A DNA stretch of 64,000 nucleotides from Anaerolineae bacterium (lineage in GTDB: Bacteria; Chloroflexota; Anaerolineae; UBA4142), in contig DAOUAL010000004.1 in assembly GCA_034433515.1 (NCBI GenBank), positions 48,697 through 112,696 on the forward strand, read 5' to 3'. Positions 5,064 to 12,800 of this stretch are shown here, one piece after another. Each line of letters opens with the position of its first letter. Positions within the stretch are counted from its first letter, which is position 1. Below the pieces are notes generated by a model. It made no database searches. It was not told the DNA's origin and saw nothing but the letters and a program-made list of their open reading frames with translations. The position numbers were made by a program, and so were the translations under genes.

Positions 5064-5710
5064 CCAACTCAATCACTGTTACGCAACCAACGCAACTCTC
5101 TGCAAAACAAACGGAACAGCTCCGCGCGATTTATCTCGATAGTTTTCCGTCTTACGAGCGCGCGGATTTTTCGTATTTGCTGAATTCGATTGCACGGGGC
5201 GCGCGATGGTGTTTTACCGCGATGCAAGACGATGAGATGCTAGGCATGGCAATCATCGTGCCGCATGTCGCGTCCGATATTCACTTGCTCGAGTATCTCG
5301 CCGTTTCAAATCAAGTGCGCGGGCGCGGCATCGGCGGACGATTGTTGGATGAGGTCATCACCGCGATACGTACCCGCCCCGGCACTTTGGGCTTGCTCAT
5401 CGAAGTGGAACCGGCGGATGAAGGAAACGAAGCCGAACGACATTTGCGCGCGCGTCGTCTCGAGTTTTATCGGCGACACGGCGCGCGCCTCGTGGAAGGC
5501 GCGCCGGACTATTACGTGCCGATGGCAGACCGTGAAGGCACGCTGCGGATGATATTGCTGTGGTTGCCGTTCACTGCCTCTGCGCGTGTGCCCGCTGGCG
5601 CACAATGGAGTGAATGTATCCTGAACATTTATGCGCGTAGTTACGAATTACCTCGCCAGCATCCTTTGGTGAGAGAAATCTCAGAACATTCTAATAGTGC
5701 ACCAACATGA
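5060..5710 (+). CDS. GNAT-family N-acetyltransferase
   Basis: LEYLAVSNQVRGRGIGGRLL acetyl-CoA motif A and RRLEFYRRHG motif B. TTG start overlaps the upstream stop. Confidence 0.85.
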   Translation: MTNSITVTQPTQLSAKQTEQLRAIYLDSFPSYERADFSYLLNSIARGARWCFTAMQDDEMLGMAIIVPHVASDIHLLEYLAVSNQVRGRGIGGRLLDEVITAIRTRPGTLGLLIEVEPADEGNEAERHLRARRLEFYRRHGARLVEGAPDYYVPMADREGTLRMILLWLPFTASARVPAGAQWSECILNIYARSYELPRQHPLVREISEHSNSAPT

Positions 5711-5798
5711 AAGTGCGTGGTGACAACTCGATGTTTAGCCACGTCTGTCAACGTTTTCCCATCAGTCTGGTATGCAACTATTTCATGTTGTTGCACTA
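5695..5798 (-). mobile_element. MITE family B, copy 1 (IS630/Tc1-like, TA duplication)
   Basis: TA-GTGCACCAACATGAAA ... TTTCATGTTGTTGCAC-TA: 16-bp inverted repeats (1 mismatch) flanked by TA. About 90% identical to 28395-28492 in opposite orientation. Confidence 0.85.
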
Positions 5799-5812
5799 GA
5801 TAGGAACGACCG

Positions 5813-6901
5813 ATGCTCAAGCAACGATTCAATTGGTTGGTCAATTTGGTGATGTTGCCAACCGCCATGTGGGTCGCCGCCACCGGCATCATCGCCGAAC
5901 TGTTTGACATCAACGATTTCGTTTTGCACAAGTATCCGGCGTTTGTGCTCGCCGGGTTGCTCGCCATCCACTTTTTGCTCCGACTGCAACCTTGGTTCAC
6001 CGGCACGCGGCGCTTGTTCAGTTTTTCATCGCGCAACACAACGGCGCCGCAACCAAAGCCAAGCGCGGCGGTCTCCGCCAGCATCACGCGACGCAACGTG
6101 TTGATCTGGCTGGTCAGCGCGATTGGTGGATTCCTTGCCGGCAATTTTCTCGCGCCTACCCGGCGCGCCAATTTGCCGACGGATGAAGACATTGGCGTGG
6201 TGTATCATCATTGGAGCAAGCCGGGAAATGTCTCACTCATCAGCACGATGATTGATTGGGGCACGCAACCACCGCTATTCAAAGAATATGCCGATGCGCC
6301 TAAAATCACTTTACCGTCTGTTCCGCCACGCGATGGAATGAGCGTGGAACAAGCCATTGTGCGGCGGCGTTCCGTCCGCGATTACGTTGGGGAACTCGCG
6401 CTGGAGGAATTGAATCGGTTATTGTTCTATAGCACCGGCATCAACGATCTGCGCTGGGGCAGTGGTTTGCGCGCCGCGCCATCCGCCGGTGCACAATATC
6501 CCATTGAAACGTACCTCATCGTCAATTACGTTGCCGGCTTGGCGCAAGGCATCTATCATTACCACATCCGCGATCACGCGCTGGAACAGATCCGCGTGGG
6601 CGATTTCCGTCAGACGATTGCGGATGCGGCACTCGGTCAAGAATTTTTTGCCAAAGCCGGCGTGGTGATTGCCTTGACCGGCATTTTTCAGCGTGCGCGG
6701 TGGCGCTATCAAGATCGCACCTATCGCTACGTGATGCTGGAAGCCGGGCATATCGGACAAAATATTTATTTGGAGGCGGTGGCACAAGGTTTGGGCACGT
6801 GTGCCGTAGGCGCGTTCTGGGACGATGATGTGAATCGTCTGTTGGGCGTGGATGGCAAAACCGAAGCCGCGTTGTATCTGTTAACCGTCGGGCGCCCGTG
6901 A
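5813..6901 (+). CDS. SagB/ThcOx-family nitroreductase with N-terminal DUF4405-like membrane domain and internal twin-arginine motif
   Basis: RRRSVRDY, RAAPSAGAQYPIE, YRYVMLEAGHIGQNIYL, LGTCAVGAF. Two N-terminal TM helices carry H39 and H53; TRRNVL precedes a third hydrophobic helix. Confidence 0.85.
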   Translation: MLKQRFNWLVNLVMLPTAMWVAATGIIAELFDINDFVLHKYPAFVLAGLLAIHFLLRLQPWFTGTRRLFSFSSRNTTAPQPKPSAAVSASITRRNVLIWLVSAIGGFLAGNFLAPTRRANLPTDEDIGVVYHHWSKPGNVSLISTMIDWGTQPPLFKEYADAPKITLPSVPPRDGMSVEQAIVRRRSVRDYVGELALEELNRLLFYSTGINDLRWGSGLRAAPSAGAQYPIETYLIVNYVAGLAQGIYHYHIRDHALEQIRVGDFRQTIADAALGQEFFAKAGVVIALTGIFQRARWRYQDRTYRYVMLEAGHIGQNIYLEAVAQGLGTCAVGAFWDDDVNRLLGVDGKTEAALYLLTVGRP

Positions 6902-6921
6902 ATGCGGCAGAAAGGAATGGA

Positions 6922-7551
6922 ATGCCACGCGATTGGCGTAAACACCAAAGTCAAGACAAATATTTTCGCCAAGCCAAGCGCGAAGGCTATCGCGCGCGAT
7001 CGGCGTACAAATTGATCGAACTGAACGAACGCTACAAATTGATTCGCGCCGGGATGACCATTCTCGATCTAGGTGCCGCGCCGGGCAGTTGGAGTCAGGT
7101 CGCCGTGGAATTGGGTGCCCGGGTCGTTGCAGTGGATCTCTCGCCGATTCAGCCGCTCGCTGGGGTAACGACGATTCGCGGCGACATTACGAAACCGGCA
7201 ACGCTTGCCCACATTACAAGTGCGTTGAGTGGCAATGCCGATCTGGTTATGTCCGATGTTTCGCCGGCAACGTCCGGCATTCACCTCGTTGACCACGCTC
7301 GCTCGATTGAACTCGCGCGCGCGTCGCTCCAACTAGCGATTCGCTGTCTCAAAAACGACGGCAAGTTTGTGGTCAAGGTATTTCAAGGCGAGGATTTTGA
7401 AGCGTTCGTCAAAGAAACGCGACAATATTTTCGTCAAGTGAGTGCGCATCGTCCGCCGGCAACTCGTGGCGAAAGTAGCGAGCATTACATCGTTGGTATC
7501 GGTTTTCGAAAAGAAAAAACAGAATCCACTACGGAGAAAAATTCTCTGTGA
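6922..7551 (+). CDS. rlmE: 23S rRNA Um2552 2'-O-methyltransferase (FtsJ/RlmE)
   Basis: YRARSAYKL, DLGAAPGSWSQ, SDVSP, VVKVFQG and SSEHY motifs (K-D-K-E tetrad). Confidence 0.93.
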   Translation: MPRDWRKHQSQDKYFRQAKREGYRARSAYKLIELNERYKLIRAGMTILDLGAAPGSWSQVAVELGARVVAVDLSPIQPLAGVTTIRGDITKPATLAHITSALSGNADLVMSDVSPATSGIHLVDHARSIELARASLQLAIRCLKNDGKFVVKVFQGEDFEAFVKETRQYFRQVSAHRPPATRGESSEHYIVGIGFRKEKTESTTEKNSL

Positions 7552-12647: not shown

Positions 12648-12800
12648 ATGATTCGACCCGAACCGCTCGATCTATTACTCATTGCCATCGTTGCCATTCT
12701 GATCTTTGGCGCCAATCGCCTGCCCGAAGTGGCACGTTCGATTGGACAAGCCATCCGCGAATTTCGAAACGCCTTCAAAGAAGACAAGCCCCAACAATAG
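12648..12800 (+). CDS. tatA: Twin-arginine translocase subunit TatA/E (50 aa; not in ORF track)
   Basis: My translation: MIRPEPLDLLLIAIVAILIFGANRLPEVARSIGQAIREFRNAFKEDKPQQ. Has the FG hinge and amphipathic helix; RBS CAGGAG. Confidence 0.93.
   Translation: MIRPEPLDLLLIAIVAILIFGANRLPEVARSIGQAIREFRNAFKEDKPQQ

Follow-up and report, generated by a model that had tools for sequence, protein, structure and literature searches.

We found that the gene at positions 5813–6901 (+ strand) of a 64,000-nucleotide stretch of an Anaerolineae bacterium genome (GenBank assembly GCA_034433515.1, contig DAOUAL010000004.1, positions 48,697 to 112,696; hereafter the window) belongs to a family of predicted membrane proteins in which an invariant pair of arginines (RR) directly precedes the third transmembrane (TM) helix, and in which that helix leads into a SagB-type nitroreductase domain. 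We propose that the protein would be a self-contained homodimeric transmembrane flavocytochrome, and it is with moderate confidence that we take it to be, all at once, extracytoplasmic, dependent on twin-arginine translocation (Tat) and heme-b-binding. Tat dependence, the binding of heme and flavin mononucleotide (FMN), and the dimer are what we infer; the layout and the conservation described below are observed.

The only long open reading frame (ORF) here, from the ORF listing and its translation, gives 362 amino acids plus a stop, read as a two-TM His-His module, a linker, the RR motif with TM3, and the SagB-type domain (translation and profile matches; all coordinates are on the + strand). 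An earlier note, made from the sequence alone, had claimed two TM helices with His39 and His53 in the second, and both the residue count on the translation and an AlphaFold2 (AF2) model bore this out. The AF2 monomer, for which the input was a 26-sequence alignment, has helices at residues 2–31, 35–56, 58–69 and 93–117. TM1 (residues 8–28, 5834–5896) lies in the first of these and contains the invariant Gly25, while TM2 (residues 35–56, 5915–5980) holds both His39 (5927–5929) and His53 (5969–5971), 14 residues apart. Residues 59–91 (5987–6085) form a putative cytoplasmic linker that is Arg-rich, with many Ser, Thr and Pro residues as well, varies in length through insertions in homologues and is predicted to be disordered; AF2 confidence was low from about residue 70 to 92, with a predicted local distance difference test (pLDDT) value <50 at 74–88. 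The note had also placed T92-R-R-N-V-L (6086–6103) after a linker and right before a third hydrophobic helix. On the translation T92-R93-R94-N95-V96-L97 does run directly into the hydrophobic stretch 96–114 (TM3, 6098–6154; Gly-rich, with invariant G106; AF2 helix 93–117), and this is followed by P-T-R-R, in which R116 and R117 occupy 6158–6163. The C-terminal alpha/beta domain was well predicted.

A word-index search returned >1300 relatives, and about 120 of those listed were full-length (355–390 aa, 43–98% identity). Conservation was counted on a MAFFT alignment of 121 full-length homologues (45–98% identity) and on a second set of 26 diverse members. In the former G25, H53, R93 and R94 are present in 121/121 and H39 in 120/121; in the latter no variation is seen at G25, H39, H53, R93, R94, G105 or G106, nor in the flavin-site motifs. 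The linker columns that flank RR reach a top-residue frequency of only ~20–60% in the 121 homologues, and Lys makes up 11% of the basic residues of the linker, yet neither R93 nor R94 is ever Lys. With this degree of conservation the RR and His features are not due to chance. The earlier note had made its proposal depend on conservation of RR; the motif proved invariant in homologues from Chloroflexota, Actinomycetota and Cyanobacteria.

The internal RR helix and the probable route of export

The orientation of the protein was read from its charge distribution. Family means of net charge are +1.1 for the N-terminus, -1.0 for loop 1 and +8.1 for the linker, which carries 10.4 K/R on average, a bias by which the N-terminus and the linker would face the cytoplasm and the enzyme domain the outside. 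The three AF2 helices make TM3 an odd-numbered final TM, and the loop before it is predicted from the charge bias to be cytoplasmic. The position on the outer membrane face that had been claimed for the nitroreductase domain is supported by this charge bias, as a predicted topology only, and we consider that the domain would very probably be extracytoplasmic. An inverted arrangement, with the N-terminus and linker outside and the nitroreductase domain tethered to the membrane on its cytoplasmic side, would agree with the cytoplasmic location of the SagB-type enzymes characterised so far. However it would send a linker with ~10 K/R and a net charge of +8 across the membrane and keep the acidic loop 1 inside, contradicting the positive-inside rule, and close relatives bear cleavable-type N-terminal Tat, Tat-lipoprotein or Sec signals on the same domain. 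We regard this arrangement as very improbable.

The segment around RR has the features of a Tat signal. The family motif is [GTS]-R-R-x-[FVL]-[LVI], with F, V or L at +2 in 114/121 and L, V or I at +3 in 118/121. An uncharged, Gly-rich stretch follows (family median 16 residues), the first charge past this h-region is Arg in 99/121, about two K/R lie within the next 12 residues, and the segment as a whole shows the n/h/c layout of Tat signals, with TM3 as the candidate h-region. Positive charges after a Tat-dependent TM have been described as part of the Sec-release mechanism (Tooke et al. 2017, PMC5449189). The charge pattern after TM3, which in the window protein comprises R116-R117 as candidate c-region or Sec-release type charges, therefore fits the release features of that study.

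Shorter relatives connect this internal segment to N-terminal signals. Representatives clustered at 50% identity were searched exhaustively, as a list of architectures and not as a proof of absence. Relatives of 250–320 aa with the same catalytic domain aligned to the query from residues 88–92, i.e. at RR, and the N-termini of the shorter single-domain relatives are canonical Tat signals (SRRKFL, SRRRFF, GRRRFLK, NRRSFV). Because these alignments start exactly at RR, the internal RR helix of the window protein is, as judged by alignment, homologous to bona fide N-terminal Tat signals. At three Anaerolineae/Ardenticatenia loci (L053, L060 and L062; match starts at 6001) the N-terminal RR is followed by a lipobox-like L-x-G-G-C, and these forms would be Tat-exported lipoprotein versions of the enzyme. 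One relative with an N-terminal signal scored 15.9 bits on the Tat-signal model TIGR01409 vs a cut-off of 16.7.

The genome that carries the window gene encodes TatC (193.8 bits) and three TatA proteins (62–74 bits), and a comparable uncleaved RR anchor is present in its Rieske protein. TatC was also found in 5/5 other genomes that carry the fused form. One of the TatA/E-family genes lies within the window (12669–12791, +; PF02416, 62.4 bits; genome-scan position C4:61365–61487), where it stands alone about 6 kb downstream of the gene studied here. TatC and the two other TatA copies are together on another contig (C110).

Several observations weigh against Tat-dependent export. The Tat-signal hidden Markov models (HMMs) TIGR01409 and PF10518, which were built on N-terminal signals, gave no match on residues 85–126 at E values up to 10. 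On a crude hydrophobicity scale TM3 scores highest of the three TMs in the window protein, not below the other two, and the family-mean TM3 is less hydrophobic than TM1 only. Some relatives are without RR, among them forms with Sec-type signals (P0168, P0267, L076) and two-domain forms (P0122, P0136 and others), and TatC is still present in at least 3 of 4 genomes with the split forms described below. An explanation of the Sec-type relatives by Tat-less genomes was ruled out by this presence of TatC in 3/4 split-form genomes. In some lineages the fold is apparently exported or assembled without Tat.

These points are the ones that would favour a route through Sec alone, in which the three helices would be inserted co-translationally by Sec/YidC, the domain would be exported unfolded and the flavin would be acquired outside: relatives in genomes with TatC have Sec-type signals or KK in place of RR, TM3 of the window protein is fairly hydrophobic on the crude scale, and the Tat-signal HMMs are without a match on the internal segment. 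RR would then be left over from an ancestral Tat signal, or would act as a strong positive-inside signal or as a ligand of the inner heme propionates. A topology signal would however tolerate Lys, whereas both Arg are kept in 121/121 despite the Lys nearby, and RR is retained in relatives without any His-His module, so that it is not there for heme. The h-region is also short, Gly-rich and followed by Arg, and the location of FMN at the nitroreductase dimer interface favours export after folding. We consider the Sec-only route unlikely. If the domain is exported, as its predicted topology suggests, its export would very likely be Tat-dependent.

A two-helix His-His module and its probable heme b

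The N-terminal module of the family is, on the evidence of profile matches, DUF4405/cytochrome-b561-like. PF14358 (DUF4405) matched 14/26 and 9/13 family members at E<1, and the best score among relatives was 26.6 bits vs a cut-off of 26.7, spanning 64 of the 66 model positions. PF01292 (prokaryotic cytochrome b561; Ni_hydr_CYTB) matched 12/26 members, and Ferric_reduct a few. In the genome of the window PF14358 matched the cytochrome b of a bc-type complex and a cytochrome-b/multiheme fusion, so that this profile does detect authentic heme-b hairpins. In a 2024 mSystems study (PMC11334425) heme b was found to be bound by a DUF4405 protein and by the ferrosome protein FezC, and the heme sites of FezC were modelled as formed by homodimerisation.

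On the helix that carries them both, His39 and His53 are ~21 Å apart, too far for the same heme, so we expect two hemes per dimer and not one, as the earlier note had it. Neither TM1 nor TM3 has a conserved His, and ligation of heme therefore needs a second copy of helix 2. Di-heme cytochromes b typically show this spacing of 14 residues between two His on one helix. Proteins of the nitroreductase fold are obligate dimers that bind FMN at the dimer interface, and the fold would therefore supply the second helix 2. The His39 pair and the His53 pair should be the predicted axial ligands of two b hemes in the homodimer, and the pairs probably do bind heme b. A dimer model of two copies of residues 1–70 with two hemes scored 0.25 vs a mark of 0.42, a result that speaks neither for nor against dimerisation.

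Other results weigh against heme binding. The window protein itself reached only 10.8 bits (E 0.74) on PF14358 vs the cut-off of 26.7, and the PF14358 scan of its own genome did not pick it up. Neither 5-aminolevulinate (ALA) dehydratase (hemB, PF00490) nor ferrochelatase (hemH, PF00762) was found in this 96%-complete genome. The same genome encodes heme-copper oxidase subunit I, a cytochrome bd oxidase, a bc-type cytochrome b and multiheme cytochromes c. Because heme-copper and bd oxidases are encoded, heme must be available somehow; it is possible that heme is scavenged, that an alternative pathway makes it, or that hemB and hemH lie in the unassembled part of the genome.

The stand-alone versions of the module provide a further line of evidence. 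In two WOR-3 bins, one Hydrothermales bin and one Nitrospiraceae bin a small ORF lies behind a gene for a single-domain nitroreductase; it encodes a stand-alone module of 75–91 aa, and its start overlaps the nitroreductase stop (GTGA or TGATG). These modules align without internal gaps to residues 1–60 of the fused proteins and keep G25, F36, H39 and H53. The nitroreductase at the split loci (L072:1229–2214, L070:2451–3376, L080:6001–7040, L076:1968–2917) has a short N-terminus that is Sec-type or ambiguous. The enzyme gene comes first and the module second, opposite to their order as domains of the fused protein, which argues for a functional partnership and not an annotation artefact. The split pairs stand to the fused window-type protein as MsrP/MsrQ stand to the fused Sco3746. 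The stand-alone modules of the WOR-3 and Hydrothermales bins have a third TM after a Lys-rich linker, with no cargo behind it.

Other relatives combine two copies in one chain. In P0122 (714 aa) two His-x13-His hairpins in tandem are accompanied by a fifth TM and a tandem pair of nitroreductase domains, and by its layout this single chain would be equivalent to a whole dimer. A further subfamily (~650–850 aa) combines two nitroreductase domains with a single hairpin and an additional TM, and is without RR. The split forms and the single-chain P0122 both support a dimer with two stacked b hemes. Nine such relatives (P0122, P0136, P0144, P0154, P0165, P0172, P0204, P0231 and P0268) place two nitroreductase domains behind one or two hairpins, with no RR before the last TM.

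A heme-less hairpin would also be compatible with some of these results. The module would then be an anchor or dimerisation device, its His would serve a metal, a proton relay or sensing, and the flavin would use soluble partners; the low DUF4405 score of the window protein and the missing hemB and hemH agree with this. Against it stand the conserved His pair on one helix at the spacing that is classic for di-heme cytochromes b, the invariant Gly in TM1, and the recurrence of DUF4405, Ni_hydr_CYTB and Ferric_reduct as hairpin matches in relatives. A mere anchor would also not explain why modules of 75–91 aa are translationally coupled to nitroreductase genes, and there is a published heme-b precedent (PMC11334425) in addition to the use of heme enzymes by this genome. 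We judge a heme-less hairpin improbable.

Taken together in a proposed mechanism, residues 1–58 would be inserted by Sec/YidC as a DUF4405-like two-helix hairpin with the N-terminus inside, and the Arg-rich linker would stay in the cytoplasm. The SagB-type domain would fold, dimerise and take up FMN in the cytoplasm. The internal RR with the Gly-rich helix 96–114 would serve as an uncleaved internal Tat signal ('class IV' Tat substrate), through which the Tat translocase would move the folded flavin domain to the outer face, helix 3 remaining as the third TM anchor. In the dimer the two copies of helix 2 would pair, the His39 pair ligating a b heme near the outer face and the His53 pair a second b heme near the inner face. 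The two hemes would then form an electron wire across the membrane, connecting the external FMN site with the quinone pool or a cytoplasmic donor.

The nitroreductase domain and its function

That the C-terminus is a SagB-type nitroreductase domain, as the earlier note had it, was confirmed by scores well over the cut-offs. The nitroreductase-fold domain (residues 182–361, 6356–6895) scored 93.5 bits on PF00881 vs a cut-off of 23.5, and TIGR03605 (SagB) scored 144.7 bits vs 78.4 over residues 197–361. It is preceded by an N-terminal extension (residues 126–180, 6188–6352) that was recognised by its conservation and aligns to residues 9–60 of domain 1 of Protein Data Bank entry 3EO7; D126, Y131, H132, W134, S135, W149, G150, P153 and K157 are invariant in it. 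The closest solved structure is 3EO7 (profile E 1e-76, including the YH..SK / DW..QP..FKEY extension), and CyaGox/ThcOx-type oxidases, BmdC and McbC are the next solved relatives; 3EO7 and CyaGox alignments cover the nitroreductase fold. The domain motifs are RRSxR (185–189), PSAGA-YP (223–230), W-R-Y (297–299) and EAGH (310–313), and the FMN-site residues R185, R186, S187, R189, P223, S224, G226, A227, Y229, P230, E310, A311, G312 and H313 are invariant in 26 members. We infer that the domain would bind FMN, because these motifs are invariant and the closest solved relatives are FMN enzymes.

A Lys-Tyr motif characterises azoline dehydrogenases in the literature on dehydrogenases of thiazole/oxazole-modified microcins (TOMMs). 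The W-K-Y of CyaGox aligns with W297-R298-Y299; the Tyr is invariant, and position 298 is Lys in the family consensus and Arg in the window protein. The genes around the window gene encode HerA-like, Mre11-like, GNAT, FtsJ/RlmE and Tag proteins. Neighbourhood clustering of ~39 related loci gave no neighbour family in more than 5 of them, so gene context offers no pointer to a substrate, which is a point against the proposed role; the annotated neighbour clusters (PD40 repeat, spermidine synthase-like, amine oxidase, sulfatase) look unrelated. A role as a dehydrogenase for TOMMs, cyanobactins or other ribosomally synthesised and post-translationally modified peptides (RiPPs) was rejected, since no YcaO, cyclodehydratase or precursor gene is nearby and the clustering gave no conserved partner.

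The direction of electron flow can be considered from known systems. In MsrQ, DUF4405 and PepSY systems electrons travel outward, and in the FdnI- and HyaC-type cytochromes they travel inward from Tat-exported dehydrogenases. SagB-type enzymes are dehydrogenases, and FMN in the nitroreductase fold is generally of lower potential than menaquinone. For these two reasons we lean slightly towards inward flow, in which a substrate outside would be oxidised and its electrons passed to quinone.

Comparison with known systems and distribution of the family

Four dual Sec/Tat families have been published: Rieske, Sco3746-type heme-molybdenum cofactor (MoCo), polyferredoxin and YkuE (Tooke et al. 2017, eLife, PMC5449189). 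None carries a flavin cargo, and the window family would add one. The words 'nitroreductase', 'FMN' and 'flavin' occur zero times in that paper. A 2026 review defines dual Sec/Tat proteins as class IV Tat substrates, and nitroreductases are absent from its text. No description of an architecture that joins SagB/nitroreductase, an internal RR and TM helices was found in open-access papers and bioRxiv. The earlier suggestion of a candidate new dual Sec/Tat family thus holds within the searchable literature, where the family is missing from the published substrate lists.

A close counterpart in overall design is Sco3746, an MsrQ-MsrP fusion (PMC5449189). In both proteins a Sec-inserted b-heme part with conserved His (the heme being predicted for the window protein) is followed by a conserved RR before the last, odd-numbered TM, by basic residues after it, and by a cofactor-loaded redox domain outside (predicted here), and for both there are organisms in which the two halves are encoded by separate genes. 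Sco3746 however has five TMs and a heme site within one chain, whereas the three-TM window protein must pair its hairpin with a second copy, and its cargo is a MoCo domain where the window protein has a predicted FMN nitroreductase-fold dimer; the two proteins have no sequence relation. Tat dependence was demonstrated for Sco3746 (PMC5449189) and is predicted from sequence for the window protein. The actinobacterial three-TM Rieske protein ('class IV'; PMC3471235, PMC13673990) uses Sec for TM1-2 and RR with Tat for TM3 and places a redox cargo outside, as is proposed here; its cargo is a 2Fe-2S center within the bc complex, and its TM1-2 are without heme ligands.

The hairpin resembles DUF4405 and FezC (PMC11334425) in being a small His-bearing TM module of the cytochrome-b561 clan. 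For DUF4405 and FezC heme b was shown, and both are associated with extracytosolic flavin-based electron transfer (PMC11334425). In the published DUF4405 protein a single chain provides six TMs and four His, and its partners are ApbE-flavinylated proteins (PMC11334425), whereas the window protein has a two-TM half-module with a sub-threshold Pfam score, fused to a nitroreductase domain in which FMN is predicted to be non-covalent. The catalytic domain shares its fold and the motifs RRSxR, PSAGA-YP, W-[KR]-Y and EAGH with 3EO7 and the SagB/ThcOx/CyaGox/McbC azoline dehydrogenases. Unlike the window domain, with its predicted export signal and attached membrane cytochrome module, those proteins are soluble and reside in the cytoplasm. 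The TOMM and cyanobactin enzymes cluster with cyclodehydratases and precursor peptides, unlike the window gene, and 3EO7 is a tandem pseudo-dimer, a putative nitroreductase from structural genomics with no assigned function. Formate dehydrogenase-N and [NiFe]-hydrogenase have a Tat-exported catalytic part wired by two stacked b hemes to the quinone pool, as proposed here, and PF01292, the recurrent weak match on hairpins of the window family, is the family of their di-heme cytochromes b. These enzymes however have several subunits, four-TM cytochromes and Fe-S relays, whereas the window protein is one chain of 362 aa with a predicted flavin.

Class IV biogenesis and the logic of joining heme b to an exported redox domain are known, and what would be new is the flavin cargo and the minimal inter-subunit cytochrome in a family that is not homologous to the known ones. 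At only three TMs and 362 aa the protein is a very small model for the hand-over from Sec to Tat, and the window family has thousands of members in Chloroflexota, Actinomycetota and Cyanobacteria. If the proposal is correct, the SagB/nitroreductase fold, so far treated as cytoplasmic, moves to the outer face and is wired to a cytochrome b, an extracytoplasmic redox reaction is implied (e.g. detoxification, repair or energy-conserving oxidation), and few natural electron wires across a membrane are simpler than the inter-subunit two-heme hairpin. We offer only tentatively, and with more doubt than conviction, the wider suggestion that the protein might be the founding example of a widespread minimal respiratory-type class: one-gene homodimeric flavocytochromes b, the first flavin cargo of the Sec/Tat route, that would dehydrogenate or reduce small molecules or peptide heterocycles outside the cytoplasm and trade electrons with the quinone pool via a pair of b hemes between the subunits.

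The family is spread widely but unevenly. The named sources among the listed relatives are Chloroflexota/Anaerolineae metagenome bins, in which the proteins are labelled 'SagB/ThcOx family dehydrogenase'. Among species-representative genomes the His-x13-His plus RR-and-hydrophobic layout also occurs at loci of Limnocylindria, Chloroflexia and Thermoflexia, and the same layout is found at loci of several Actinomycetota (including the isolate Kineosporia sp. A_224) and filamentous Cyanobacteria. In a 200-genome sample of the phylum the full-length form was present in only 5 genomes besides that of the window. Genomes of the same class are mostly without the full-length form, and the nearest full-length copies (E ~1e-172) are in another family of the phylum. 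This patchy distribution may stem from gene transfer or from repeated losses.

The genome of the window has a second SagB-like paralogue (L088, C26:1756–2346), a 239-aa frame with 42% identity to residues 163–361; its length leaves no room for the membrane module and linker seen in the window protein. Cys330 (6800–6802, in G-x-G-x-C-A-V-G-A-F) shows no variation in the 26-sequence alignment. It is present in 30/33 RR-bearing single-domain representatives vs 3/9 Sec-type forms, and it occurs in signal-less relatives as well. It was rejected as a tracker of export, as there is no clear link when signal-less forms carry it too.

Two features adjoin the gene. Upstream, a Shine-Dalgarno-like AGGA (5802–5805, +) was read from the sequence 7 nt 5' of the ATG, and between it and the GNAT gene lies an element of ~100 bp (5696–5797) with 17-nt inverted termini (5696–5712 and 5781–5797; 16/17 complementary), which looks like a miniature inverted-repeat transposable element (MITE). 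At the other end the stop overlaps by 4 nt (6898–6901) the GTG start of the downstream FtsJ/RlmE-type methyltransferase gene (6898–7551), and this overlap suggests that the two genes, which are unrelated in function, are co-transcribed or translationally coupled.

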